Notes: generated by a model not told the origin, from the letters alone. Positions 6,771 through 60,315 are shown, numbered from the stretch's first letter. The stretch is DNA of 64,000 nucleotides from Verrucomicrobiota bacterium (GCA_036803685.1 DAIRTX010000001.1:6766-70765), one strand, 5' to 3'. Program-made: numbers and translations.

Positions 6771-9461
6771 ATGCCTTCGCAACCCGGCTTCTGGCGGAAG
6801 TGCCGCGCAGGCTTTCGCTGGTTTCGCGTCACCGTTCTTTTCGCGGTGCTCGCGCTGGTTTGCGCCCTCGTCTGGTTCAACCGCATCGGCCTGCCGGATT
6901 TTTTGAAAAGGCGTCTGGTGGAAACATTGCAAACGCGCGGAATCGAATTGGAATTCACCCGGATGCGCCTGCATTTCGTCCACGGGCTGGTCATCGAAAA
7001 CGTCCGCATCGGCCACGCTGAACCGCCCGACAACCCGGTGCTTTCACTGGCCGAAATTCAACTGCAATTGAACTACCGCGCACTGTTGCGCCGGCAATGG
7101 CAGGTTGATGGACTCATTTTGCGTCAGGGTAAATTCGTCTGGCCGCTCACGCCAACCAATGTGTTCACGCTCGGCAACATTCAGACCGAATTGCGCTTCC
7201 AAACGAACAACACCTGGTCGCTCGACCATTTTCAAGCTGACTTCGCCGGCGCGAAACTCGCGTTGTCAGGCGACATCATCCACGCGCCGGAGATTCGCAA
7301 CTGGGACATTTTTCATGTCAAAAAATCCGCCGGCCGTGACGTTTGGCCGGCACAATTGCGGAAATTTTCCGACACGCTCGACCGGATACATTTCACGGGC
7401 ACGCCGCAATTGAGCCTGGTCGTGGACGGCGACGCGCGGGACATTCACTCGTTCGCCGTCCGGCTGAACCTGAACGCGACCTCGATTCAAACGCCCTGGG
7501 GCGGCGCGCGCGACATCCGGCTCACCGGCAACCTCACCGCGCCCGCCGGAACTCCAACCAATTTCGTCTCGTCGTGGGCGTGGTGGACAAACGCGCAGCC
7601 GTATCGGTTGACTTGGACGGCGAAATTCAGGGAATTGAAATCCGAAAAACTGAATGCGGACTTCGTGGAGTGCAACGGCCTCTGGCAGGCGCCCGAATTG
7701 GCCGTCACTAAATTGTCCGCCGGGCTGGGCGGTGGACAACTTGATGCCACTGCGCGGCTGAACCTTGCCACGCGCGAGCTCACCTTCACCAATTCCTCAT
7801 GTTTCAACGTTCATGCGATTGCCGCATTGCTGACGGAAAAAACGCGCGAACGGCTGGCGGATTTTTCGTGGACCCAACCGCCATCACTCCGAGCCCGCGG
7901 CTCGCTGATTCTGCCCGCGTGGATCCCGCTGATGCGGGACCAGCCGGATTGGCGCGACGAAGTGCAACCGACCATTCAATTAAATGGCGAACTGGCCATC
8001 ACCAATGGTGTGTTCAGTGGCGTTGCGATTGACTCGGCGCGCACGCATTTTTCCTACTCAAATCTCCTGTGGCAACTGCCCGATCTAGCGGTCGTGAAAT
8101 CAAAGAGCCGGCTCAAATTAAGCGGTGGCGAGGACGACGCGACAAAAGATTATCACTGGCACATCCGCGGCGTGTTGGATCCGGAAGTCGTCCGGCCGTT
8201 TTTGACGACGAGCAACGCGGTGCGCGGTTTTGAGATCGTGAAGTTCACCGAGCCGCTGGCGTTGGACGTGGAGGTAAGCGGGCGTTTGTATGATTACGAC
8301 CGCATCATGGCGAGCGGGCGCGTGGCGTTAACGAATTTTGCGGTGCGCGGCCAGGCGTTTGGCGACGTGGTGTCAGCGTTGAATTACACGAACCGGGTGC
8401 TGGAATTTGTCAATCCGCTGATGCACACCGGCGCGCAGATGATGACGGCGGACAAGGTGACTTTGGATTTCAACACGCGGCTGATCTGTTTCACGAACGG
8501 TTTCAGCACCGCCGACCCGGGACCCGTCACGCGCGCCATCGGGCCAAAAACGGCGCGGCAGGTGGACCCGTATCATTTTCTGCAACCGCCGACGGTGCGG
8601 GTGAACGGCCAGGTGCCGTTGCACGACATGAACGGCGGGCGCGACATGACGGACGTGGATTTGCAGTTTGATATCATCAACGGCGCGCCGTTTGAATGGA
8701 TGAAGTTCAAGACGACAAACATTGTCGGCACCATTCACTGGCGGGGACAGACGCTGATTTTGACCAATGTGGCGGCGGCGTTTTACGGCGGTGATGGAAA
8801 TGGTTTTGCGAATTTTGATTTTCGCGCGCCGCATGAAGGCGCGGATTATCAGTTTGTCGTGAGCGTGACGAATGTGAATCTACATTCGCTGGCGGCGGAT
8901 TTATCTTCGCCGACGAACCATCTCGAAGGCACATTGGCCGGACGACTCGTCGTGACGGACGCGGATTCAAGGGATTGGCGGACGTGGGATGGTTTCGGCC
9001 ACGCGAACCTGCACGACGGGTTGCTTTGGGACATTCCGATTTTCGGCATTTTGTCGCCGGTGTTGAACACGCTTTTGCCGGGTTTGGGCAACAGCCGCGC
9101 AACGGACGCTGCGACGAAATTTTCCATCACCAATGGCGTGATTTACACAGACTCATTGGAAACTCGCTCGACCATGATGCGGCTGGAATACACGGGCACG
9201 GTGGATTTGAAGCAAAACGTCCATGCGCGCGTCACCGCACAGTTGCTGCGCGACACCTGGGTGGTCGGCCCGCTGGTCAGCACGGTGCTTTGGCCGGTGA
9301 GCAAATTGTTTGAATACAAAATCACCGGCACGCTGAAAAATCCGAAGAGCGAACCGGTTTATGTCCCGAAATTCCTGCTGCTGCCGTTGCACCCGATTCG
9401 CACTTTGGAGGGAATGTTCCCCAGCGGCGAAACTGGAACGAACGCGCCGCCGGAGAATTGA
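6771..9461 (+). CDS. AsmA/TamB-like envelope protein
   Basis: 896 aa with one N-terminal TM helix (VTVLFAVLALVCALVWF), then a long beta-rich body. The AsmA-like N-terminus is (GIELEFTRMRLHFVHGLVIENVRIG). The C-terminus (TGTVDLKQNVHARV...YKITGTLKNPKSEPVY) is typical of AsmA_2/TamB ends. Starts 1 nt after the DUF4340 stop codon (TGA-C-ATG). Confidence 0.65.
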   Translation: MPSQPGFWRKCRAGFRWFRVTVLFAVLALVCALVWFNRIGLPDFLKRRLVETLQTRGIELEFTRMRLHFVHGLVIENVRIGHAEPPDNPVLSLAEIQLQLNYRALLRRQWQVDGLILRQGKFVWPLTPTNVFTLGNIQTELRFQTNNTWSLDHFQADFAGAKLALSGDIIHAPEIRNWDIFHVKKSAGRDVWPAQLRKFSDTLDRIHFTGTPQLSLVVDGDARDIHSFAVRLNLNATSIQTPWGGARDIRLTGNLTAPAGTPTNFVSSWAWWTNAQPYRLTWTAKFRELKSEKLNADFVECNGLWQAPELAVTKLSAGLGGGQLDATARLNLATRELTFTNSSCFNVHAIAALLTEKTRERLADFSWTQPPSLRARGSLILPAWIPLMRDQPDWRDEVQPTIQLNGELAITNGVFSGVAIDSARTHFSYSNLLWQLPDLAVVKSKSRLKLSGGEDDATKDYHWHIRGVLDPEVVRPFLTTSNAVRGFEIVKFTEPLALDVEVSGRLYDYDRIMASGRVALTNFAVRGQAFGDVVSALNYTNRVLEFVNPLMHTGAQMMTADKVTLDFNTRLICFTNGFSTADPGPVTRAIGPKTARQVDPYHFLQPPTVRVNGQVPLHDMNGGRDMTDVDLQFDIINGAPFEWMKFKTTNIVGTIHWRGQTLILTNVAAAFYGGDGNGFANFDFRAPHEGADYQFVVSVTNVNLHSLAADLSSPTNHLEGTLAGRLVVTDADSRDWRTWDGFGHANLHDGLLWDIPIFGILSPVLNTLLPGLGNSRATDAATKFSITNGVIYTDSLETRSTMMRLEYTGTVDLKQNVHARVTAQLLRDTWVVGPLVSTVLWPVSKLFEYKITGTLKNPKSEPVYVPKFLLLPLHPIRTLEGMFPSGETGTNAPPEN

Positions 9462-48063: not shown

Positions 48064-49131
48064 ATGCCTGCCTTTCCAGAAAGCATTTTGATCGCCGGCG
48101 GCGCGGGCTTTGTCGGCGGCAATCTCGCCGTGTTCCTGAAGCGACGCCACCCTCAAACTCGCGTCATCGCCATGGACAACTTGCACCGGCCCGGTTCCGA
48201 ATTAAATCTGCCCCGGCTGCGTGAAGCCGGGGTGGAGTTCGCCAAAGGCGACATCCGGTCCGCTGAGCAGTTCCCCACCGGGCCGTTTGAGGCCATCATT
48301 GAATGTTCCGCCGAACCTTCCGTGCTGGCCGGTTACGCCGACTCGCCGGACTATCTCATGGAAACAAATTTTCTGGGCACCTACCGCTGCCTTGAAAAAG
48401 CCCGGCAATGGCAAAGCCATTTTTTGTTTCTTTCCACCAGCCGCGTTTATCCCATGGCCCCGCTGGAAGCGCATCCCTGGCGCGAAAGCGAAACGCGTTT
48501 TGAGTGGCTGGACGCCGCCGGAGCGCTGATTTCCTCGCAAGGCGTCCGCGAAGAATGCGCGGCCCAAGGCGCGCGCTCGCTTTACGGGCTGACCAAGTTT
48601 GCCAGCGAAGGGTTGATTGAGGAATACCGCGCCGGATTTGGACTTCGAGCGGCCATCAACCGTTGCGGCGTCATTGCCGGACCGTGGCAAATGGGCAAGG
48701 TGGATCAAGGCGTCGTGTCGTTGTGGGTGCTGCGTCACTATTTCGGCAAACCGCTTTCTTACATTGGCTACGGCGCCATCGGCAAACAGGTCAGGGACGT
48801 GCTGCACGTGGCCGACCTTTGCGAACTGGTCGAAGAGCAAATTTCCAACTTCGACCGTTGGGACGGCTGGCTCGGCAACGTTGGCGGCGGGCTGGAAATT
48901 TCCGTTTCGCTTCAAGAACTGACCGCCGTGTGCCGGAAAGTTGTCGGACGAGAAGTGCCGGTTGGCGCCGAACCGGAAAACCGCCAGGCCGATTTGCGGA
49001 TTTTCCTCGCCGATTGTTCCAAATTGTTTGCGCGAACCAACTGGCGTCCGAAACGCGGCGTGACCCAAACCGTCGCTGACATTTTTGAATGGGTGCGCGC
49101 CCACGAAAAGGCATTGCACCCGCTGGTATGA
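48064..49131 (+). CDS. NAD-dependent epimerase/dehydratase (CDP-paratose/tyvelose 2-epimerase-like)
   Basis: ILIAGGAGFVGGNLA, DNLHRPGSELNLPRL, YGLTKFASE, QGVVSLW...GKQVRDVLHVADL, and GNVGGG resemble Salmonella RfbE as I recall it. Confidence 0.85.
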   Translation: MPAFPESILIAGGAGFVGGNLAVFLKRRHPQTRVIAMDNLHRPGSELNLPRLREAGVEFAKGDIRSAEQFPTGPFEAIIECSAEPSVLAGYADSPDYLMETNFLGTYRCLEKARQWQSHFLFLSTSRVYPMAPLEAHPWRESETRFEWLDAAGALISSQGVREECAAQGARSLYGLTKFASEGLIEEYRAGFGLRAAINRCGVIAGPWQMGKVDQGVVSLWVLRHYFGKPLSYIGYGAIGKQVRDVLHVADLCELVEEQISNFDRWDGWLGNVGGGLEISVSLQELTAVCRKVVGREVPVGAEPENRQADLRIFLADCSKLFARTNWRPKRGVTQTVADIFEWVRAHEKALHPLV

Positions 49132-50365
49132 AAAGCGATTCACGCGCCGGAAATCTGTTGCGGAGCGGCATCATTTTCTCCGCCATCAGTTTTGTCACCG
49201 GGCTGGGCCATCTGGCCTTTCAAGGCGTGCTGGGCCGGGCCAATACGGCAACGCGAACAGCGCGTTGGGCGGTTTGATGACGCTGCTGGGTCTGCTGCCA
49301 GCGGTGGCCACCTTTGCCGTCACGCATTACATCGCGCATTTCAATGCCAGCGGCGACAGCGCACGGCTGCAAGGCTTGCTCCTGGGCTGCCGGAAATTTC
49401 TGTTCCGATTCACCATTGCCGGTTCGGTGCTGGCGGTGATTGTCACCAAGCCTTTGAGCGATTTTTTCCACTACCCCGAAAGCCTGATGCTGGTGACGCT
49501 CGGCTGCGCGCTCCTGGGTCTGTGGGCTTCGCTGGCCACGGCGTTGTGCCAGGGTCTCGCGTGGTTCAAACGGCTCGCGCTCATCGGATTTCTGGCCATG
49601 CTGCTGCGCGTTTCTTTCGGCTGGCTCATCACCTTCAAATGGCCGTCGGCGGAAACCGCCGTGCTCGCCTCGGCCTTCGCGCTGCTGGCCAATCTCGTCC
49701 TGCTTTTCTGGCGAAAGGATTTGTCGCTGCACGGCGAGCCGGTCCCGCCGTGGAACCGCGAGTTCGCCCAATACTTCATCGTCAGCGCGGCGTTTGTGGC
49801 CGGCAACTTTTGTTTTTTTCAAGGCGACTACCTGGTGGCAAACAAATTTTTCGCTAAAGAAGAACTCGATGCCTATGCCGCCGTCGGGATTTTGGCGCGC
49901 GCGCTGCCCCTGACCGTTGCGCCGCTGCTGATGGTATTGTTCACCTCGCGTTCCGGCCAGCGCGCGGGTGGTATCGTGGCGGAGCAGCTCAAATTATTCG
50001 GGCTTTCCGGCCTCGCCTTGGTTTTTGGCGCAATCTGTCTTTTTGTGCTGCGGGCGTTCTGCCTGAAAATTCTCGGTAAATATACACCGCCAGCCGCCGA
50101 GCTGGTCGGCCCATTTGCGGTGACAATGGTCTTCGTCGGGCTGCTGCAGGCGCTCGCGCTTTGGGCGCTTGCCAGCCGTTGGTTAAAAATTTCCCTGCTC
50201 TATGGCGCGCTCGGCCTCACTTACTGGCTGACACTGCTCGGAACCGGAAAAACTCCGGCGGCGTTGCTGCAAACGATGCCAATCACCGCCGGTGTCGCGT
50301 TCGGCATTTTATTTTTCGTCTGGCTCTTCACCATGAAACAGCACAAGCCCTGCGCGCAAAGCTGA
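49128..50365 (+). pseudogene. Polysaccharide flippase (Wzx/MOP-like) interrupted by a single frameshift near 49236-49241 (or an assembly error)
   Basis: ATG 49128 overlaps the epimerase stop (ATGA). It encodes a credible first TM segment (MKSDSRAGNLLRSGIIFSAISFVTGLGHLAFQGVLGR) that stops at 49275-49277. The remaining ~375 codons of a 10-12-TM protein continue in the -1 frame (..QYGNANSALGGLMTLLGLLPAVATF..). Confidence 0.6.
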
Positions 50366-51434: not shown

Positions 51435-52631
51435 ATGAAGCGCGCCAAAATCCATTTTTTCTGCAATGGCATATTCGGAACCAATGTCGCCGGCGGTGAC
51501 ATCCATTTTTTGAAATCCGCCCGGGCCGCCGCGGAAGAGGGTTATGAATTGAATTATTTCGGCGGGCAGGCGTTCCGGAAAATCATCGAGGCGTACAACC
51601 TGCCCGGCACCGTCACGTTGACGGATGATGCCAAAATGGCGGAGGTCAACCAGGGTTCGTTGCGCGGACAGTTGGCGATGTTCCGGGATTTTTACGGCCG
51701 CTACCGGCGGTCGCTGGAATTGTGCGGGCGCGTCACCCCGGATGATTACGTCTATGCGACGAGCGATTACTGGTTTGATGCGATTCCCGTTGTCCGCTGT
51801 CCGGCCCGCCGGAAGTTGATGATCGTGCATACGCAGGCGCCGGGACTGATGCAAATCGTGCGGCGGGGACGTCCGGATGTTGACGTCAAGCGGCTGGCTT
51901 CGCTCCACTTTTTCCTGAGCCAGAAATACGCGCTTTCACGATTCCGATCCTGCCCGAACAAACGGCTGTTGTATGTCCATCCCGCCATGCAGCCGGCCTT
52001 TTTGCGGATGGATTATGATGAATCGGAATTGTTTTTCACTTCCGAAGGTTTTGACCTGGCGGCGGCGGAAAACACCCCGGCGCAGCCCAAACAGTTTGAT
52101 GTCATCTGGATTGGCCGGGTGCATCGCCAAAAAGGCATCGAGGACCTTCTGGCAACGCTGGCTTATCTGGCGGGCAAAGTGCCGGATTTCCGCGCCATCC
52201 TAGTCGGGAAGGTGGAAGGACCATTGCGACCGCAAATTGAAGCCTTGGGACTGCAAAAGCACGTGTCGTTTGCGGGAGTGGTTCTATCGGAAACCGAAAA
52301 ATCCCGTTTGCTCAAGGCGAGCCGGGTGTTTCTCATGCCCAGCAACTTTGAAAGCTGGGGCATCGTCATCGCCGAAGCGCTGGCCAGCGGCATTCCCGTG
52401 GTGGCGTATGAATTGGATGCTTATCGTCCCATCTTTGGAAACCTGTTGCGTTATGTCCGTCCCTTCGATCTGCGCGCGTTCCAACAGGAGGCATTGGATG
52501 AAGTGAACCGCGCCCGGGCGGGACAAACCTGGCTTGATGCGGCCAGCCTGCAGGCGTTCAAACAAGCCCATTCCTGGCAGGCAACTCAAAAGCGGTTTTT
52601 GCAGGCTCTGAACTCGTTCACCGACCGGTAG
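51435..52631 (+). CDS. Glycosyltransferase family 1 (GT4-type)
   Basis: The C-terminal GT-B motif RVHRQKGIEDLL...FLMPSNFESWGIVIAEALASGIPVVA. Confidence 0.9.
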   Translation: MKRAKIHFFCNGIFGTNVAGGDIHFLKSARAAAEEGYELNYFGGQAFRKIIEAYNLPGTVTLTDDAKMAEVNQGSLRGQLAMFRDFYGRYRRSLELCGRVTPDDYVYATSDYWFDAIPVVRCPARRKLMIVHTQAPGLMQIVRRGRPDVDVKRLASLHFFLSQKYALSRFRSCPNKRLLYVHPAMQPAFLRMDYDESELFFTSEGFDLAAAENTPAQPKQFDVIWIGRVHRQKGIEDLLATLAYLAGKVPDFRAILVGKVEGPLRPQIEALGLQKHVSFAGVVLSETEKSRLLKASRVFLMPSNFESWGIVIAEALASGIPVVAYELDAYRPIFGNLLRYVRPFDLRAFQQEALDEVNRARAGQTWLDAASLQAFKQAHSWQATQKRFLQALNSFTDR

Positions 52632-52649: not shown

Positions 52650-52735
52650 TCATTTCACAATCCACGGTTTGAACCGGTTCCGCAACCGCCGCCAGAATTG
52701 TTCGCGCGATGAGAGCGGCCGTCCATCATTCGAGA
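52650..52735 (-). pseudogene. 3'-terminal remnant of a GT8-like glycosyltransferase gene (third copy)
   Basis: Encodes ...NDGRPLSSREQFWRRLRNRFKPWIVK*. This is homologous to the C-termini of 53712-54293 (NDGRPLTPHEQFWRRLRNRFKP*) and 58685-59488 (PDGRPLTNREQFWRRLRNKFRPWAVG*). No upstream homologous body is present. Confidence 0.5.
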
Positions 52736-52804
52736 TTTGCGGCAGACTTGGCGGTGGTGGTGGTATTGGTGAATGACGCTTCCGCTGCTTCCTTGAGAAA
52801 ACCG

Positions 52805-53710
52805 TCAGTGACCCGCTTGTCCAGACGGTTTCAGCACGATGGCCAGACCGCGACCAGCCCATTTGCCGAAACGGGCGATTGGACCTTTGCTCTGCTTCCA
52901 CCAGCCGACCGTCTCAAAGCCACAATAAGTGGTCAGGTCATGAAGCCCACGCGGAGTGAAATCGCGGATGTGTCCCGATGGTGAAAATTTTTCCAATTTA
53001 GGCTGCAACGAGGTTGGCCAAAAACCATAGGTGACTTTCTCCGTGCCGAGTTCCGAACCAAGCGGCTGGCTGGCGAACAGAAAAAGGATCCGGTTCACCC
53101 ATGCAGCAGTGTTCGGCACGCTGATGACGCACAGTCCTTGCGGGGCAAGCACCCGACGAAATTCGCGAACCAGTTTTTCCGTCTCAAAAATGTGTTCGAG
53201 CACATGATTGCAGCTCAAGAAGTCAAAACTCCCATCCGCGAACGGCAACGGTTGACCATCGAGGTTTTGCTGGACGAATTTGAAATCCAAACAGACTTCG
53301 CTGAAATGATCACCGGGGCTTCGCACTAAATCAATGCCTGCGGCTTGGACGGTTTGAACACCGTAACGCTGTTTTAATCCCGAAGCGAAATCGCGCGGAA
53401 ACAAACCTTTGCCACAACCCACGTCGAGCATTCGGAACGGACGGTCATTAAAGGTCTTCGCCCAGGCCCCGACAACGCCCAGAGACAGAAGCGAATTCAT
53501 GTGGTATTCACCCGCAGAGTAGGTTTGATCCTTCGCGTGCAATTTTGGATAAAATTCTTCATCTCGGCTCATGGCAATTTTTTGGTAAATTCTGTTCACC
53601 CCATGCGTTAAAGCAAGAATGAAAGTCCCCATTTTTGAGATTGCTGTGTGCTTAATCTTTGCAAGAAAGCCGGAAGAAAATAATGGCGGCCCCAAGTTTT
53701 TACTTGGCAA
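52805..53710 (-). CDS. Class I SAM-dependent methyltransferase
   Basis: Motif I MLDVGCGKGLF, then FDFLSCNHVLEHI and LAPQG. The start is uncertain: 53710, or the internal Met at MSRDEEFY. Confidence 0.82.
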   Translation of the reverse strand: MPSKNLGPPLFSSGFLAKIKHTAISKMGTFILALTHGVNRIYQKIAMSRDEEFYPKLHAKDQTYSAGEYHMNSLLSLGVVGAWAKTFNDRPFRMLDVGCGKGLFPRDFASGLKQRYGVQTVQAAGIDLVRSPGDHFSEVCLDFKFVQQNLDGQPLPFADGSFDFLSCNHVLEHIFETEKLVREFRRVLAPQGLCVISVPNTAAWVNRILFLFASQPLGSELGTEKVTYGFWPTSLQPKLEKFSPSGHIRDFTPRGLHDLTTYCGFETVGWWKQSKGPIARFGKWAGRGLAIVLKPSGQAGH

Positions 53711-53711
53711 T

Positions 53712-54293
53712 TCACGGCTTGAAACGGTTTCGCAACCTTCGCCAAAATTGTTCGTGCGGAGTCAGTGGACGCCCGTCGTTGACCAAAGGCGGCAACTCGG
53801 CGCGTGACTTGGTTGGCAACATTTTTTTTGCCTCATCCATGCACGTGGCGTTGTGATAAATCATGACGCCGTCCAGATGTTCGACCGTCGGCCAGCCGCG
53901 CCGTCCGTTCTTGAAATAGGCACGGAAATTGTATTGGCACGGCAAAATCCTGAGGCGGTCGAAGTATCTGGTCAGGATGACTTCGTTGAGACAGAGTTGA
54001 TCGTCGGCCAGGGTGCGGAAATGGGATCGTCCGCGGGCGACGATTTCCGCGCGAATGTCCCGGCTGCGCGGCACATTCCAGAGACAAACGCCGCCGTTCA
54101 AAAAGTTCGCCGTGTAACCCGGCCCCAACACGTAGCGGCTGCCGTGATGTTCGACACAGGCGGCCACATCCGCATTGCCAAGCAATTGTTCAAACGGCGG
54201 CAGGGGTTGAAGACACCGCACGTCAAAACTGTCCACCGTCATCGCATAATCCACCCCCAGGCCATCGAGCACTTCCAGCCGGCGGGCAGTCAT
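53712..54293 (-). pseudogene. N-terminally truncated copy of the GT8-like glycosyltransferase (copy B)
   Basis: 193-aa ORF, about 95% identical to residues 75-267 of 58685-59488. It lacks the first ~74 residues (the Rossmann beta1/nucleotide-binding part). Its ATG lies in unrelated sequence just beyond the duplication boundary at 54285. Confidence 0.6.
53815..54285. repeat. 471-bp duplicated segment, copy B (pairs with 58800-59270)
   Basis: My hand alignment is gap-free at a constant offset of 4985 nt, with 12 mismatches in 471 (459/471). 53896-54203 is a 308-bp run of perfect identity. Confidence 0.9.
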
Positions 54294-54468
54294 TCAGAAG
54301 AACCCATAACTTTACCCGTAATCCTCCCAGCGAGTTTTTGAAGGACTTCAGGCAAAATTCAGCCAGCTTAAATTTATCTTCGGCGAAAATCGGAGGGCGG
54401 CTGGCGGACATTTTGGGATAAATCCGGTAAGCCACCGCTACATCATAACTAAATCGGCTCATAATCAT
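54286..54468 (-). pseudogene. 5' fragment (61 codons) of an unrelated gene truncated by the duplication junction
   Basis: ATG 54468 overlaps the upstream gene's stop (ATGA). It reads MIMSRFSYDVAVAYRIYPKMSASRPPIFAEDKFKLAEFCLKSFKNSLGGLRVKLWVLLNDC, then enters the duplicated segment out of frame and stops at 54223. The N-terminus resembles some glycan-cluster glycosyltransferases (recollection only). Confidence 0.45.
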
Positions 54469-55454
54469 TTCATTTGCGTCTTGGATTCTCCCTTGAAAAA
54501 AGCGCGATACCATTGGCAGGTGCGGGATAAGCCTTCTGCCAGAGAATATTGGCTTTTCCATCCGAGCACAGTTTGTTCAAACTCCGGCGCATAGAAAGTA
54601 TCAACCCGTTCTTCCGATTTTTCGTTTAAGACACGCGGCTCAATGTCAGGCAATCCTGCTGCGCGGGCAATCTGTTTTACCATATCCAAAACACTTGTTC
54701 CTAATCCGGTGGCCACGCGGAACAATTGCCCTTTCACCGCCGGATTATCCAGACGCGCGCCGATGGCCATGTATGCCGCCACCGCATCCTCGATGTAAAC
54801 GTAATCCCGTTGAAACAGACCGTTGCTGCGAATCACGGGCGTCTCACCGTGAAGGATTGCGCGAATCGTGCCGGGCACCAGCCGGGACCAATTGAAATCG
54901 CCGCCGCCATAGATGTTGTCGGATCGCACGAGCGCCACGAGAAGGCCGAACGTGTCGCCGTAAGCGCGGGTCACCAATTCGGCGGCGGCTTTGGAAGTCA
55001 TGTAGGGATGATGCAACCGGTTCACGCCGGGCAAAAAACAATCTTCAACTTCCTTGCTGGAGGCGACGACGGCACACGCGGGTTTTGGCGCGGTGCGGCA
55101 CGCTTCGAGAATGGTATAGACGCCGCGAATGTTCGTTTCAAAAATTTCATAGGGCGACAAATCCGATCCTGTGTTCGTGTTAATCGCGGCCAGATGATAA
55201 ACGATCTCAATTGCCGAATCGGCAATAAGTCTGGAAACAAAATTCAAGTCAGTGATGTCTCCCTGTACGACCTTGATGCCGGTTTTACGCGGCCGGAATT
55301 TTTCATTACCTGGGGAATTTGGCCCGATCAACGCGCAGGTCTGCGCGCCGCGCGCCGCCAAAGCGTTGGCCAGCCAATATCCCACGAAACCATCCGCTCC
55401 CGTAACCAGCACGCGCCGCGAAGTCCATTTGAGCAGTTGCGGCTGTTGATTCAC
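54465..55454 (-). CDS. NAD-dependent sugar dehydratase/epimerase/reductase (diverged paralogue of the rfbG-like gene)
   Basis: VLVTGADGFVGYWLANAL, YMTSKAAAE (YxxxK), NIYGGGDFNWSRLVP. The usual SSDKAYG serine motif is replaced by SSKEVEDC. GTGA overlap with the upstream gene. Confidence 0.82.
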   Translation of the reverse strand: MNQQPQLLKWTSRRVLVTGADGFVGYWLANALAARGAQTCALIGPNSPGNEKFRPRKTGIKVVQGDITDLNFVSRLIADSAIEIVYHLAAINTNTGSDLSPYEIFETNIRGVYTILEACRTAPKPACAVVASSKEVEDCFLPGVNRLHHPYMTSKAAAELVTRAYGDTFGLLVALVRSDNIYGGGDFNWSRLVPGTIRAILHGETPVIRSNGLFQRDYVYIEDAVAAYMAIGARLDNPAVKGQLFRVATGLGTSVLDMVKQIARAAGLPDIEPRVLNEKSEERVDTFYAPEFEQTVLGWKSQYSLAEGLSRTCQWYRAFFKGESKTQMK

Positions 55455-56761
55455 AAGGAATAGGCCAGGTCTTCAAACGAACGTTCCAGATAACGTTCGT
55501 AGTTGGACGCGTCCACAATATGCAATCGCGGCAAGTCGAAAACCATTTTGCAGCCGTTCTTCAGAAGCGCGATTTCATCGCGAATCACTTCCTTGCGGAA
55601 ATGCCAGATCAACACGAAGAGATATCCGGGATTCAGTTTCCGAAGTTTTTCGTGGGAAATAATTGGAATGCGGGTGCCCGGCGTGACCAAACCGTCCTTT
55701 TCAGGATTTCGATCTCCGATGGCAACCAAATCTGCGGCGCCGAGACCGCAGTAATTCAAAACTATATTACCTTTGGTCGAAGCGCCATAGCCATAGACCT
55801 TTTTGCCCGCCGCGTTCATCATTGAAAAAAAACCGCGCACGTCGTCCCGATGTGTGAGAATGCGATTGCGAAGCCGGGAAAAAGGCTCGTCGGTATCCAG
55901 TAAAGCCTCGTCGTCGAGCAGTTTTTTTATTTTTCCCATTTGAGGCTGATACGGCCCGTCCTCGCGACCGGCAATGATATAGAAACTTCCGCCGTTCATG
56001 TCGTTGAACGAAACGTCCAGAATTTTAAGTCCCGTTTTTTTCATCATCCAATCCATCTGCCGAAGACCAAGATAAGTGACATGCTCGTGACAGATTTGAT
56101 CGTAAGTGAGTTGTTTGAGCAACAACGGCAAATAGGATAGTTCCAATGCCCAGACACCATCTTTGGAAAGCAGCGCCCGAATATCGCGCATGAATTTCAT
56201 CGGTTCATCCAAATCGTAGAACATGGCGATTGAGGTGATGATTTTACAGCTTTTATCTCCGATAAGAGACCGCGCGCCTTTTTCAGAGAAGAAATCGTAA
56301 ACTGTCTTGATGTCCGGCTGGAAATGGCTCGCAAACTTTTTGCTGGATGGATCCATGCCGATGCGCATGAGACCGGCCTTCGATCCATAAGCATTCAAAA
56401 GAGTGCCGTCGTTGCAGCCGATGTCCAACACCACGTCGTCCGATTTCGGTTTGGCGAAATCAACGAGCGCGCGCACTTTGGATTCCAGATGCGAAACCAT
56501 CGTGGGACTGATTGAGGAATAGTATCCGTAAGTGGTGCCGTACATTTCGCTCAACTCGGCGGTGTGCAGAAGCTGAACCAGTCCGCAGGCTCCCGGTTTG
56601 GCCTGAACATCGCATCGAACCAATTTCAATGGAGAAATTGACGGATCCGGCGCGTCGGAACGCGGAAACACTCCGCTAAGCGGCTGATTTCCGAGATCAA
56701 TAATCTCTTTAAGATTTGGATTTCCACAAATTCGACAGTGAGTCCAGGTTTTTAACGGCAT
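55451..56761 (-). CDS. NDP-hexose C-methyltransferase (TylCIII-like; zinc-finger + SAM MT + C-methyltransferase C-terminal domain)
   Basis: N-terminal CRICGNPNLKEIIDLGNQPLSG, SAM motif VLDIGCNDGTLL, and a C-terminal domain with YGYGASTKGN. Confidence 0.88.
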   Translation of the reverse strand: MPLKTWTHCRICGNPNLKEIIDLGNQPLSGVFPRSDAPDPSISPLKLVRCDVQAKPGACGLVQLLHTAELSEMYGTTYGYYSSISPTMVSHLESKVRALVDFAKPKSDDVVLDIGCNDGTLLNAYGSKAGLMRIGMDPSSKKFASHFQPDIKTVYDFFSEKGARSLIGDKSCKIITSIAMFYDLDEPMKFMRDIRALLSKDGVWALELSYLPLLLKQLTYDQICHEHVTYLGLRQMDWMMKKTGLKILDVSFNDMNGGSFYIIAGREDGPYQPQMGKIKKLLDDEALLDTDEPFSRLRNRILTHRDDVRGFFSMMNAAGKKVYGYGASTKGNIVLNYCGLGAADLVAIGDRNPEKDGLVTPGTRIPIISHEKLRKLNPGYLFVLIWHFRKEVIRDEIALLKNGCKMVFDLPRLHIVDASNYERYLERSFEDLAYSL

Positions 56762-56805
56762 AAAAGGGTTTCAATCTATGGGTTGATCTTGGCAAATGGT
56801 CTGCA

Positions 56806-57801
56806 TCAAAATTGAGCCGCCAGATATTCGCGATACCACGCAATCGTTTCGTTCAATCCCTCTTCCAGCGTGTATTGCGGTTTCCATTTCAAAACGCGAT
56901 GCGCCTTTGTCGTGTTGAGATATTGCTCGCGAATTTCGCCGGTGGCGGTGTTTTGCACGTCGGGTTCGAGATGCTTGCAGTTCATCAATTGCTGAATCAC
57001 TTTGACGAGTCCGAGCACGGTCATGGGACGTTCGAGACTGAAGTTGAATGCCTGACCGGGCACTTTTTTGTCCGAGAGACATTCCGCGGCTCTCATATAG
57101 CAGCGGCTCACATCTTTGACGTAAATGTAATCGCGCACATATCGGCCGTCGCTGCGGATGACCGGTCGTTGATTGTTCAAAAAACAGCGAATCGCGTAAG
57201 GCACGATGCGGCTCCAGTTCAAATCGCCGCCGCCATAGATATTTCCGCAACGAAGAATCACGACGGGCAAACCGTAAGTATGATGATACGCCTGCGTGAT
57301 GAGGTCAGCGCAGCTTTTCGAGACTTCGTAGGGATGCTTGCCTTGCAGCGGCATGTCTTCAGTGTAAGGCAGGTGTTCGTGTTCGCCGTAAGCTTTGTCG
57401 CTTGAAGCGATGACAACGCGCTTCACGAGATCGGAATGAATGCGGCACGCTTCGAGCAAATTGTAAGTGCCGCTGACATTCGTTTCAAAAGTCGGCAATG
57501 GATAACGATGCGCGACATTCACGATCGGCTGGGCGGCCAGATGAAAAACCGTGTCCGCTTCATTTTCATTCAGTGCGCGTTCGAGACTCGAAAAATCCTC
57601 AACGTTTCCCTGCACGAGCGAAGTCTGCCGGTAATCGCCGGAGCGAAAAAAACCGGATTGCGGATCAGGATCGCGCACGAGTGCAATCACGCGCGCGCCG
57701 GATGCGATCAAATCTTTCACGAGCCAATAACCGACCATGCCCGTCGCGCCGGTCACGAACACACGGCGGTCGCGCCAAAAATTATTTTTGGATGTTTTCA
57801 T
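56806..57801 (-). CDS. rfbG: CDP-glucose 4,6-dehydratase-like enzyme
   Basis: FWRDRRVFVTGATGMVGYWL, SSDKAYGE, HPYEVSKSCADL, NIYGGGDLNWSRIVP. Start at 57801 gives an ATGA overlap with the rfbF stop. Confidence 0.82.
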   Translation of the reverse strand: MKTSKNNFWRDRRVFVTGATGMVGYWLVKDLIASGARVIALVRDPDPQSGFFRSGDYRQTSLVQGNVEDFSSLERALNENEADTVFHLAAQPIVNVAHRYPLPTFETNVSGTYNLLEACRIHSDLVKRVVIASSDKAYGEHEHLPYTEDMPLQGKHPYEVSKSCADLITQAYHHTYGLPVVILRCGNIYGGGDLNWSRIVPYAIRCFLNNQRPVIRSDGRYVRDYIYVKDVSRCYMRAAECLSDKKVPGQAFNFSLERPMTVLGLVKVIQQLMNCKHLEPDVQNTATGEIREQYLNTTKAHRVLKWKPQYTLEEGLNETIAWYREYLAAQF

Positions 57802-58586
57802 TTCCAGATTTTCCACGGGGCTTTGCCCGTCTTCCAGACATTGTTGAGGACTTCAAATTCATACGGCGTGTCCATGTGATGCCAATAGCCGTCGTGCTGG
57901 TAAATCATGAGTTCGCCGTCCACCGCCATGCGCTGCAACGGCTCGCGTTCAAGAATTAGATTTTCCTGATTGTTCAAGTAGCGGTCGAAGATGGACGCAT
58001 TGAATACGAAAAATCCGCCGTTGAGATAACCGCCGCTGAATTCCGGCTTTTCATTGAACTTCACAACCTTGTCGCCCTTGAGCACCAGATCGCCAAAACG
58101 CCCCGGCGGATGCGCGCCGGTCAATGTCCCAACTTTACCGTGCGATTTGTGAAATTGAATAAGCGCAGGAATGTCAATGTTCGCGACCCCATCGCCATAA
58201 GTCGCGCAAAAAATTCCTTCCGGCTCCAGATATTTCCGCGCGCGCCAGAGCCTCGCGCCGGTCATCGCATCTTCGCCCGTGTCCACGCACGTGATGCGCC
58301 ACGGCTCGGCGGACTGGCTGTGAAAGGCGACACGGTCGGGGCCGTTGCGGCTGAGGTCAACAGTGATGTCATTCGTCACTGCGGCAAAGTTAAGAAAAAA
58401 ATCGCGAATGTAATCACCCTTGTAGCCGAGCAGCAAAACAAATTCGTTAAAGCCATAAGCGCTATAAATTTTCATGATGTGCCACAAAATCGGGCGATTG
58501 CCAATCAGTGTCATCGGCTTGGGAAGAACATCGCTGACTTCACGGAAGCGCATGCCGCGGCCTCCGCATAGAATTGCAACTTTCAT
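57798..58586 (-). CDS. rfbF: Glucose-1-phosphate cytidylyltransferase
   Basis: MKVAILCGGRGMRFREVSDVLPKPMTLIGNRPILWHIMKIYSAYGF..FVLLLGYKG and the C-terminal WHHMDTPYEF/APWKIW are the RfbF signature. I prefer the start at 58586; the 38-codon extension is unsupported. Confidence 0.92.
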   Translation of the reverse strand: MKVAILCGGRGMRFREVSDVLPKPMTLIGNRPILWHIMKIYSAYGFNEFVLLLGYKGDYIRDFFLNFAAVTNDITVDLSRNGPDRVAFHSQSAEPWRITCVDTGEDAMTGARLWRARKYLEPEGIFCATYGDGVANIDIPALIQFHKSHGKVGTLTGAHPPGRFGDLVLKGDKVVKFNEKPEFSGGYLNGGFFVFNASIFDRYLNNQENLILEREPLQRMAVDGELMIYQHDGYWHHMDTPYEFEVLNNVWKTGKAPWKIWK

Positions 58587-58613
58587 TTTCAACGAAGATA
58601 CCGAATACTTGAC

Positions 58614-58642
58614 ATAGTATTCAATAACTAATGGGATTTCAA
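58614..58642 (-). promoter_or_regulatory. Candidate sigma70-type promoter for the rfbF operon
   Basis: On the minus strand: TTGAAA (58642-58637), a 17-nt spacer, then TACTAT (58619-58614), about 28 nt upstream of the rfbF ATG. Preceded by a weak hairpin plus T7 tract (58641-58665) that could terminate the upstream GT8 gene. Confidence 0.3.
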
Positions 58643-58684
58643 AAAAAGCAGCGCGCGGACGTTGCAGGAAGACCGACCGGTGGC

Positions 58685-59488
58685 TCACCCGACCGCCCAC
58701 GGTCTGAACTTGTTCCGTAACCGCCGCCAGAATTGCTCGCGGTTTGTCAGCGGACGCCCATCGGGTGGCAACCCGGGCAGCGCGGCACGGGGTTTTACCG
58801 GCAATATTTTTTTTGCCTCATCCATGCACGCGGCGTTGTGATAAATCATGACGCCATCCAGATGTTCGACCGTCGGCCAACCGCGCCGTCCGTTCTTGAA
58901 ATAGGCACGGAAATTGTATTGGCACGGCAAAATCCTGAGGCGGTCGAAGTATCTGGTCAGGATGACTTCGTTGAGACAGAGTTGATCGTCGGCCAGGGTG
59001 CGGAAATGGGATCGTCCGCGGGCGACGATTTCCGCGCGAATGTCCCGGCTGCGCGGCACATTCCAGAGACAAACGCCGCCGTTCAAAAAGTTCGCCGTGT
59101 AACCCGGCCCCAACACGTAGCGGCTGCCGTGATGTTCGACACAGGCGGCCACATCCGCATTGCCAAGCAATTGTTCAAACGGCGGCAGCGGCTGAAGACA
59201 CAGCACGTCAAAACTGTCTACCGTCATCACATAATCCACCCCCAGACCGTCGAGCACCTCCAGCCGGCGGTAATAAACCTCGCGTAACGGGTGTGAAAAA
59301 TCGGGCGAGGGAGCGAGCAGATGGTATTGGATGCCGGGAATCCGGCGCTGGGGCAGCTGCCCGCCAAGGATGAACGCATGCAACTCCGCGTTGGGACACC
59401 GGGCAAAGCTGGAGAACGTGTGGTCCAGATTTTCCGTGGCCTTGCCCATGGCCAGCGTGACCACGGCGGAGCGGGAAGATTGATTCAT
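58685..59488 (-). CDS. GT8-like glycosyltransferase (full-length copy A)
   Basis: 267 aa. AVVTLAMG, a DxD-like VDSFDV, FLNGGVCLWN, DDQLCLNEV and LPCQYNF match the GT8 (LPS glucosyl/galactosyltransferase-type) motif pattern. Confidence 0.78.
   Translation of the reverse strand: MNQSSRSAVVTLAMGKATENLDHTFSSFARCPNAELHAFILGGQLPQRRIPGIQYHLLAPSPDFSHPLREVYYRRLEVLDGLGVDYVMTVDSFDVLCLQPLPPFEQLLGNADVAACVEHHGSRYVLGPGYTANFLNGGVCLWNVPRSRDIRAEIVARGRSHFRTLADDQLCLNEVILTRYFDRLRILPCQYNFRAYFKNGRRGWPTVEHLDGVMIYHNAACMDEAKKILPVKPRAALPGLPPDGRPLTNREQFWRRLRNKFRPWAVG
58800..59270. repeat. 471-bp duplicated segment, copy A (pairs with 53815-54285)
   Basis: See 53815-54285. 459/471 identical, with no gaps. Confidence 0.9.
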
Positions 59489-59541: not shown

Positions 59542-60315
59542 TCAACTCAGCTTTACAGCCAACCGGCCCGAAAAATCAAGTTTGATCAACAGTGGCACAA
59601 ATGTCTGCCTGGCAAAATAATCATCCACCGCCTTTCGACAGCCCCGCCAAAAGCCGTAATCGTCGATGATGAGCACGCCGTTGGAGCAGAGCAAGGGATA
59701 AAGATGCGTGAGTTCGTGATAAGTGGATTCATACCAATCAGTATCCAGTCGCAGAAGCGCGATTCTCTTGGGCATGGAAGCAGGCAGGGTATCCTCAACC
59801 CGGCCCTTGATGAAATGAATCTTGTCTTTGGGATAACCGGTGGAAAAAACATTCCTTTGCACGTCATTCAGCCCGGCGACACACCAATAGGAATGTCCCT
59901 CTTTATCATTTTCTGAAATCGCCAGGAGGTCTGCTGCACGTGTATGGTCATATGTTACATCTTTGTCGGTCGGGGGCGTCATGCCCTCATAAGTATCATA
60001 AAGATAAAAATGCCGCGAAGTATCGCCGAGTTGCAAAAGAGTCAACATTGCCGCCATCATGCTGCCCCCTCGCCAGACGCCACATTCCACAAAATCGCCC
60101 TCTATCCGGTTGTGGGAAAGGTATTTCACGGCATTGATCAGACCGCCAATGCGCTCGATCCCGGTGGCTGTGAAAGGTTTTACTTTGACCATGATTTCCA
60201 ATTCATCCGGGGTGTAATCTCCCCCTATTTTAACAATCTCATACCCAAAGAACCGAAAGAAACGGTGAATAGCTACTTGCACAGGGTCGAGAATAAAACG
60301 ATATCTTACATTCAT
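59542..60315 (-). CDS. TylF/MycF-family (macrocin-type) sugar O-methyltransferase
   Basis: GDFVECGVWRGGS, LYDTYEGM, and LRLDTDWYESTYHELTHLYPLLCSNGVLIIDDY are hallmark TylF motifs. Confidence 0.88.
   Translation of the reverse strand: MNVRYRFILDPVQVAIHRFFRFFGYEIVKIGGDYTPDELEIMVKVKPFTATGIERIGGLINAVKYLSHNRIEGDFVECGVWRGGSMMAAMLTLLQLGDTSRHFYLYDTYEGMTPPTDKDVTYDHTRAADLLAISENDKEGHSYWCVAGLNDVQRNVFSTGYPKDKIHFIKGRVEDTLPASMPKRIALLRLDTDWYESTYHELTHLYPLLCSNGVLIIDDYGFWRGCRKAVDDYFARQTFVPLLIKLDFSGRLAVKLS

Follow-up and report, generated by a model that had tools for sequence, protein, structure and literature searches.

Organization of the locus

The stretch of DNA analysed here, referred to as the window, comprises 64,000 nt (64 kb) from an uncultured Verrucomicrobium from peat soil (of the Limisphaerales/Pedosphaera type), and all positions are counted from its first nucleotide unless another locus is named. 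The region in question is the variable slot of a polysaccharide gene cluster of the O-antigen, capsule or exopolysaccharide (EPS) type. A gene for a 267-aa protein, predicted to be a retaining GT-A glycosyltransferase, is found there as an intact open reading frame (ORF) (58685-59488, minus strand; the F copy), as a 5'-truncated copy (53712-54285, minus strand; the T copy) and as a remnant of the last ~28 codons (..NDGRPLSSREQFWRRLRNRFKPWIVK*) of an older copy (52650-52735, minus strand), which is situated 18 nt from the stop codon of a convergent GT4 glycosyltransferase gene. We consider it probable (roughly 0.6) that the incomplete copies are scars of cassette insertions, and that the perfect core of the T copy is a later overlay, found only in the contig of the window and most likely produced by the assembly.

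The T copy matches residues 74-263 of the intact protein and lies in register with the intact gene at an offset of 4985 nt. Over a tract of 471 nt (58800-59270 inside the intact gene and 53815-54285 in the T copy, minus strand), 459 positions are identical in the window, and the longest perfect run extends over 308 nt (53896-54203; repeat family D1). Upstream of 54285/54286 the identity collapses, and at the 3' ends of the two copies (gene positions 608-803) it amounts to 147 of 196 positions (75%). A tblastn search of the 64-kb window revealed no further copy of the 267-aa gene or of gene X, which is described below.

Residues 1-73, including the first three beta-strands of the nucleotide-binding sheet (according to the secondary structure of the predicted model), are missing from the T copy, and its ATG at 54293 is fortuitous, being derived from the sequence of gene X. 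Between strain L025 and the native T copy (i.e., the state found in the other assemblies, see below), three changes occur in 574 nt, two of them non-synonymous and one from stop to Trp, too few for a dN/dS estimate. The stop codon concerned, TGA at 53712, reads TGG in L025 and in the genes of P0124 and P0130, the ORFs of which are four codons longer (..KPWIAK/R). Because of the loss of the first three strands, the chance start codon and the changes between strains, the T copy is to be regarded as a pseudogene that is almost certainly non-functional, judged from a small sample of strains.

Directly upstream of the T copy lie the first 61 codons of a foreign gene (gene X; 54286-54468, minus strand). 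Its ATG at 54468 overlaps the TGA of the preceding gene, which encodes a short-chain dehydrogenase/reductase (SDR), in the arrangement ATGA, the two genes being translationally coupled; after the 61 foreign codons, the frame runs into the repeat with a shift of one base and terminates at 54223. Intact X is a glycosyltransferase of GT-A type with 294 aa, exhibiting the motif ..AEDDYFY.. and a weak match to Glycos_transf_2 (E=0.15). A word-indexed search with the 61-aa fragment yielded only 7 short fragments; a full-length X is found adjoining the 267-aa gene in locus L028. At the junction (54279-54285, minus strand), the sequence CCGCCGG is common to the end of X (..TGC CCG CCG G) and to the 267-aa gene (..TAC CGC CGG CTG). 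Homologues of X continue past this point as CPPEYE or CPTEYE and, taking them as a guide to its length, the illegitimate junction would lie at a GC-rich microhomology of 7 nt. It is identical in L025 and in P0124, P0126 and P0130. A programmed frameshift joining X to the T copy was dismissed, as the point of fusion is a recombination junction that different strains have in common, there is no hint of a slippery site, and the product would be without a coherent fold.

Two further observations concern gene X. The X fragments of the window (54286-54468) and of L025 (2909-3100) are 13.7% divergent, with 25 differences, among them an indel of 9 nt by which the residues C-A-N are added, whereas in the flanking SDR gene and T copy the divergence is only 0.3-0.5%. 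It seems that a small patch has been exchanged by recombination within a dead gene fragment; no donor for it is present within the window. In L020, the scaffold name of which suggests Stordalen Mire (WOOD18), a homologue of X (495-1064) is situated directly after a CDP-glucose-dehydratase-like gene and contains an in-frame TGA after ..FTKLW, which could reflect a pseudogene, a sequencing error or recoding.

The third remnant is recognizable by a 66-nt repeat (family D2; 52662-52727, 53712-53777 and 58697-58762) with 76-82% identity among its three members, and by a tblastn match of the 267-aa protein at 52727-52656 (residues 243-266, 79% identity, E=1e-9). In the window it is still in frame; its counterpart in L010 is decayed and carries stop codons. 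A first-pass annotation, made by hand from the sequence, had already outlined this anatomy, from the long tract with its perfect core, abrupt end and diverged 3' ends to the coupled out-of-frame chimera and the third 3' end, and the computed alignments and searches reproduce it throughout.

Concerning the remaining genes, everything from 61155 down to 52805 is encoded on the minus strand, in the order methyltransferase gene MT240, a TylF-like O-methyltransferase gene upstream of the intact copy (59542-60315; Pfam TylF, 2.2e-42), the 267-aa gene, a glucose-1-phosphate cytidylyltransferase gene (57798-58586; TIGR02623, 4.1e-95, above cut-off), a CDP-glucose 4,6-dehydratase-like SDR gene (56806-57816; TIGR02622, 4.6e-63, below cut-off, and Pfam GDP_Man_Dehyd), a sugar C-methyltransferase gene (55451-56761; Pfam Methyltransf_13/_14), a second SDR gene of the epimerase/reductase type (54465-55454; Pfam Epimerase, 5.9e-38), the X fragment, the T copy, the methyltransferase gene MT275 (52805-53632; assigned by Pfam) and the remnant. 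The four genes from the cytidylyltransferase to the second SDR belong to the cassette, and MT275 travels with the T-type 3' end, its neighbourhood being shared with L009 and L010. The GT4 gene (51435-52631, plus strand; identified as an ORF and by comparisons), a GT2 gene and a flippase-like gene are situated on the plus strand, convergent with the minus-strand cluster, and the GT4 gene constitutes the fixed right border of the variable slot. Judged from its gene families, the cluster would make a branch with a CDP-activated, C-methylated 6-deoxyhexose. No transposase or integrase was found among the ORFs and domain scans of 50-62 kb, which contained only sugar-pathway, methyltransferase and glycosyltransferase genes, and the repeat analysis revealed no inverted or terminal repeats at the junctions.

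The ORF of the cytidylyltransferase (within 57798-58700 of the window) runs 38 codons upstream of the start supported by the model (MKVAILCGG, at 58586), and its overlap with the 3' end of the 267-aa gene is only an ORF artefact; gene callers elsewhere picked a start at 58553. Between the two SDR genes of the cassette, a direct repeat of 50 nt is found (55094-55143 and 57441-57490, 76% identical), which is a conserved motif of paralogous dehydratase/epimerase genes and not a recombination scar. The flippase-like gene (426 aa; 49085-50365) represents another variable patch of the cluster: it is missing from loci of the L021 type, where the alignment skips from window position 50286 to 49131, and in L025 it is ~2% diverged as compared to 0.3-0.5% for its neighbours.

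The family of the 267-aa protein

For the 267-aa protein, 517 homologues of ~266 aa with 67-82% identity were found, all of them annotated as hypothetical. At 50% clustering, the family has only 46 representatives among 1.8 billion clustered proteins, with no named family among them, and it is restricted to metagenome-assembled genomes (MAGs) of Verrucomicrobiota from bogs, soils and groundwater. Nine loci (L031, L032, L044, L045, L050, L057, L064, L068 and L088) carry the gene in bins labelled Bifidobacterium/Bifidobacteriaceae, Candidatus Acidoferrum or Methylomirabilota; these contigs are probably mis-binned in the respective MAGs.

The protein matches no Pfam family at E<=1, PF01501 (Glyco_transf_8) included, no NCBIfam family, and no PDB chain at E<=10, either by phmmer or by a profile of 41 family sequences. 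Its AlphaFold (AF2) model is confident (pLDDT 91.9, pTM 0.89), and Foldseek aligned ~250 residues of it (E 5e-10 to 3e-9, TM about 0.55) to enzymes of the GT6 and GT8 families, i.e., alpha-1,3-GalT, GTA/GTB, LgtC (21% identity), the xylosyltransferase domain of LARGE1, XXYLT1 and WbbM, the GT6 enzymes scoring equal to or better than the GT8 members. Residues D91, D94, D167, D168, Q169 and H217 are invariant in the 41 family sequences; D91 and D94, D167-D168-Q169 and H217 appear to resemble the DXD, DQ and His motifs of GT8, respectively. The designation as a GT8-like gene, given in the first-pass annotation, is thus appropriate for the fold, which is predicted to be like that of the CAZy families GT8 and GT6, but not for the family, as membership in these is not apparent at the sequence level even with the family profile. 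The 267-aa protein rather defines an unannotated, Verrucomicrobiota-specific family of predicted retaining GT-A glycosyltransferases, which marks a border of the cassette slot.

Residues 80-113 of the protein also find matches in two giant proteins, in 15 repeated stretches of P0166 (3709 aa) and in 6 of P0182 (2055 aa); these matches may represent a repeated short motif or low-complexity similarity. Furthermore, in the distant genome of L085, an inverted partial copy of the family gene (residues 147-262, 51% identity) adjoins the full-length gene (8001-8780) on its upstream side. Apart from that of L095, which is cut by the contig end, tblastn (E<=1e-5) yielded no other partial copy in 71 reference loci.

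The perfect core and the relatives of the locus

Several independent contigs (from NCBI, ENA and JGI) encode the exact 267-aa protein, and one of the related contigs, L003 (MEGAHIT, k141), spans both copies; the arrangement with two copies is therefore no artefact of a single assembly. The perfect core of 308 nt is confined to the contig of the window. In seven others (L001, L002, L003, L006, L007, L008 and L015), 427 of the 471 positions of the tract are identical between the copies (90.7%); the 32 extra differences are all situated at 53956-54147, and these contigs are otherwise 100% identical to the window (for L001, L002 and L003, 31-32 differences over up to 10 kb, every one of them within this block). 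At the 32 markers of the homogenised block (53956-54147), the T copy of the window exhibits the state of the intact gene, whereas the T-state is found in every other contig that covers it (seven listed), and the markers of the window's T copy read 12 T, 32 F and 57 T in succession. The block is bounded by a left switch point of 56 nt (54148-54203) and a right one of 60 nt (53896-53955), both identical in the native F and T copies and the only identical runs of more than 25 nt between them. Four contigs end at the edges of the repeat, L001 at 53957, L002 at 53897, L016 at 54174 and L018 at 54148.

The same singularity is apparent at the protein level. The 193-aa product of the window's T copy (P0122) has one NCBI contig on record (117,319 nt), obtained by cluster look-up, the exact gene-position index having no record of it; for the native product (P0121) there are 5-7 contigs, one of them with 112,566 nt. 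A metagenome collection was scanned for the left switch point with two patterns, a plain 75-mer and one in which the core markers were set to N. Neither gave a match, although the pattern matches nine known loci; the collection evidently does not contain these samples, such that the zero provides no count of native versus converted copies.

When related genomes are compared, as the first-pass annotation had proposed, the arrangements form a nested series. In the simplest one (stage 0; L021-L024, four assemblies), the TylF gene is followed by the 267-aa gene, a gap of 18 nt and the convergent GT4 gene, and the last ~78 nt of the gene, the gap and GT4/GT2 are colinear with 52727-50286 of the window at 91% identity. 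On account of this colinearity, the remnant in the window is the positional orthologue of the gene's 3' end in L021-L024, where the gene lies next to GT4. Stage 1 (L010-L012 and L009) consists of the gene, MT275, the remnant and GT4. Stage 2 (L003, L006-L008 and the 98.8% identical strain L025) exhibits the arrangement of the window with the same X/267 junction, and stage 3, with the homogenised core, is represented by the window alone. Across 71 reference genomes, the slot downstream of the 267-aa gene is empty or contains MT275 alone, other sugar-nucleotide cassettes, or an X-like glycosyltransferase. The nested stages in the relatives therefore point to cassette insertion, and not in-place duplication, as the origin of the scars, and the repeated cassette shuffling in a polysaccharide locus that had been proposed is strongly supported, all intermediate arrangements being present in related assemblies.

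A deviating arrangement is found in L009 (ENA, k141), where the TylF gene is followed by a hybrid gene of 263 aa, MT275 and GT4, and the 4985-bp cassette is absent. The markers of the hybrid read 44 F and then 57 T, with the crossover within the 60-nt stretch that also forms the right switch point of the window, and the flanks match the window except for one single nucleotide polymorphism (SNP). For the sample of L009, the nine places listed (of 12 contigs read) did not include the exact C-methyltransferase of the cassette. L009 is either a product of recombination between the direct repeats or an uninterrupted predecessor.

Concerning the affinities of the individual segments, the 3' end of the T copy is 97% identical to L010 and 75% to the intact copy, and the 3' end of the F copy is 90% identical to L021. 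The central block of the native T copy carries the states of the family consensus and the outgroup; the intact copy, L010 and L021 share derived states there. Among 184 family proteins, the T core occurs only in truncated copies. In its usual state, with 90.7% identity in the tract and ~75% at the 3' end, the T copy is thus a different allele and not a recent duplicate.

In L010 (10001-10804; also in L011 and L012), a related strain, the gene is intact and present as a single copy, yet it is pieced together from F-like and T-like segments. Derived states are shared with F at the equivalents of window positions 54147-54026 and 53871-53820, and with T at 54006-53982 and over the whole 3' end, and the left boundary of the patchwork lies in the same 56-nt stretch as the switch point of the window.

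Origin of the arrangement and comparison with known systems

We infer the following order of events. The 267-aa gene forms the left border of the slot and the convergent GT4 gene the right one; each incoming module would have brought its own 3' part, or a whole allele, of the 267-aa gene together with cargo genes, and pushed the 3' end of the previous copy downstream as a dead fragment. In a first step, MT275 would have arrived, leaving the 28-codon remnant at 52650-52735. In a second step, the CDP-hexose cassette (cytidylyltransferase, 4,6-dehydratase, C-methyltransferase, SDR and the start of X) would have followed, its far end joining the resident gene at codon 75 via the GC-rich 7-nt microhomology and leaving a 5'-truncated, out-of-frame copy. 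This second step may have proceeded by homology-facilitated illegitimate recombination (HFIR) or by single-crossover integration of a circularised fragment. The outcome is two direct repeats 5 kb apart, natively 90.7% identical over 471 nt. Several features expected of HFIR are found, namely a homology-free junction at a microhomology, relatives free of the insertion, and a lack of transposase and integrase genes and of att repeats in the region and scans described above.

Some points weigh against this history or leave parts of it ambiguous. A linear HFIR event, with the T copy as the resident, and the integration of a circle, with the F core as the resident, fit equally well; the outgroup with which the resident copy was compared (L010, together with eight further genomes) is itself a patchwork. 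The intact copy and the genes upstream of it relate to several alleles in patchwork fashion, such that no single crossover point is fixed. The 184 family proteins included no intact donor allele in which a T core is combined with an F 3' end and followed by the cassette; at the DNA level, L028 resembles such a donor only loosely. As for the microhomology, its length is deduced from X homologues of 80-87% identity and not from the actual donor.

The perfect core is probably best explained by the collapse of an assembly bubble. De Bruijn assemblers of the SPAdes, MEGAHIT or Velvet type remove equal-length paths between two shared nodes as bubbles or bulges. The diverged cores of the two copies are flanked by two shared stretches of at least 55 nt, the only ones of this length. 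At k<=55, a short-read assembler may have merged the cores as a bubble between these stretches, and such a collapse, followed by paired-end repeat resolution, would yield precisely the sequence of the window. As expected from this process, the variant is present in one assembly, the 56- and 60-nt stretches bounding it lie right at or slightly beyond the maximum k of 55 that is commonly used, both copies end up with the identical core, and other assemblies break at the same nodes. The alternative is a genuine and very recent gene conversion, in which 192-308 nt of the T copy would have been replaced by RecA-type recombination, with the intact copy as the template; both exchange points would then lie in the longest identical stretches, and the history of the insertion scars would be unchanged. 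We regard it as a serious possibility, yet the less probable of the two. An identity block between diverged flanks, with the unconverted state in close relatives (the seven contigs), and the clean double switch (T12/F32/T57) are what conversion would leave, and real conversion would likewise favour the longest identical stretches. That genuine recombination between these sequences occurs is indicated by the patchwork alleles of L010, by the replaced X patch in L025 and by L009, a k=141 MEGAHIT contig with the product of a single crossover in the same 60-nt stretch, from whose sample the exact cassette C-methyltransferase was not listed; this raises the prior for a real conversion and argues against the collapse. 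On the other side, the converted state is known from a single contig (that of P0122) and is not reproduced in independent data, as opposed to the native state on at least seven contigs, which are 100% identical elsewhere and come from six or more samples or assemblies; no other SNP over 10 kb marks a separate lineage; the tract coincides exactly with the bubble enclosed by the two shared stretches of at least 55 nt, the only ones of this length; and contigs of other assemblies are interrupted at these edges. The recent gene conversion or duplication read from the near-identity in the first-pass annotation is therefore not established, as the T copy is not a recent duplicate and the near-identity exists in one contig only.

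An in-place tandem duplication of the 267-aa gene, with later divergence and decay, would make the copies recent paralogues of the same genome. The direct repeats in the same orientation, 5 kb apart, and their high identity in this window would agree with it; nevertheless, it is very improbable, since native divergence is uneven (9.3% in the tract versus ~25% at the 3' end), each segment is closer to another genome than to its paralogue (the 3' end of T to L010, that of F to L021), the T core has closer affinities to distant species, at its left edge the copy is fused to an unrelated gene, and cassette-free arrangements exist. It is also unlikely, though less so, that the T copy and the remnant are maintained as silent 3' cassettes that recombine with the expressed gene in the manner of Rhs/CDI (contact-dependent inhibition) orphans or pilS cassettes. 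Were this the case, recombination with an orphan would switch the C-terminal part of the enzyme while dropping or keeping the CDP-sugar cassette, and a conversion in this genome and the deletion in L009 would both be outcomes of it; such a system would imply glycan heterogeneity in a soil Verrucomicrobium population and provide a glycosyltransferase counterpart of the Rhs/CDI orphan modules. An open frame of 193-197 aa is kept across strains, the remnant of the window is in frame, and L009 fuses the expressed 5' part to the orphan 3' part with the cassette gone. Against this stand the irreversibility of the deletion, the stop codons in the remnant of L010, and the fact that all three changes of the T copy between strains are non-synonymous or affect the stop. 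Moreover, the tblastn search of the 71 reference loci yielded one further partial copy not due to a contig end (L085), and a stricter scan for the C-terminal motif no extra copy in any of them, both searches being unable to detect decayed remnants of ~28 codons. The insertion history with a later overlay in one contig consequently remains the preferred reading.

Polysaccharide loci of mosaic structure that contain gene remnants are familiar from enterobacteria and pneumococci. The locus described here adds a new case to this known type of locus evolution, the phylum being unusual and the anchor belonging to a glycosyltransferase family that is unannotated. It provides a clean example from an uncultured peat and soil phylum, in which all intermediate stages are present in public metagenomes, such that the order of events can be read directly. 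At the same time, it indicates that an apparent recent gene conversion in MAGs needs confirmation at the level of reads, because the 308-nt core is missing in at least seven assemblies of the same strain and has the boundaries expected of a bubble collapse.

Among the systems described in detail, the Abe module in the O-antigen cluster of Yersinia pseudotuberculosis S2, with its tyv remnant, has one homologous end, the other end being situated inside a gene (Kenyon, Cunneen, Reeves 2017, PMC5399914). Equally to the Abe module, a module for a CDP-sugar pathway is found here in a polysaccharide cluster, with a gene remnant left behind, junctions within the cluster and no mobile element. There are, however, differences between them: the remnants described here derive from the same glycosyltransferase gene that is still intact upstream, which results in direct repeats, two nested rounds are found, and the host is an uncultured Verrucomicrobium. 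Orphaned 3' regions that arise by sequential displacement are also described for Rhs/CDI loci and for the effector-immunity arrays of Vibrio cholerae's type VI secretion system (T6SS), and are attributed to HFIR (Kirchberger et al. 2017, PMC5361080). Differing from these systems, the anchor here is a glycosyltransferase and not a toxin, the cargo consists of sugar-nucleotide and methyltransferase genes instead of immunity genes, and there is no evidence for a use of the orphans. The general organization is nevertheless the same, with a conserved 5' anchor, an incoming new 3' part with its cargo, the old 3' part shifted downstream and a resulting string of orphans. Furthermore, the interval between the main gene and an orphan can be lost when the two recombine, as in the Rhs orphan case of Salmonella (cited in PMC5361080), to which the arrangement of L009 is comparable.

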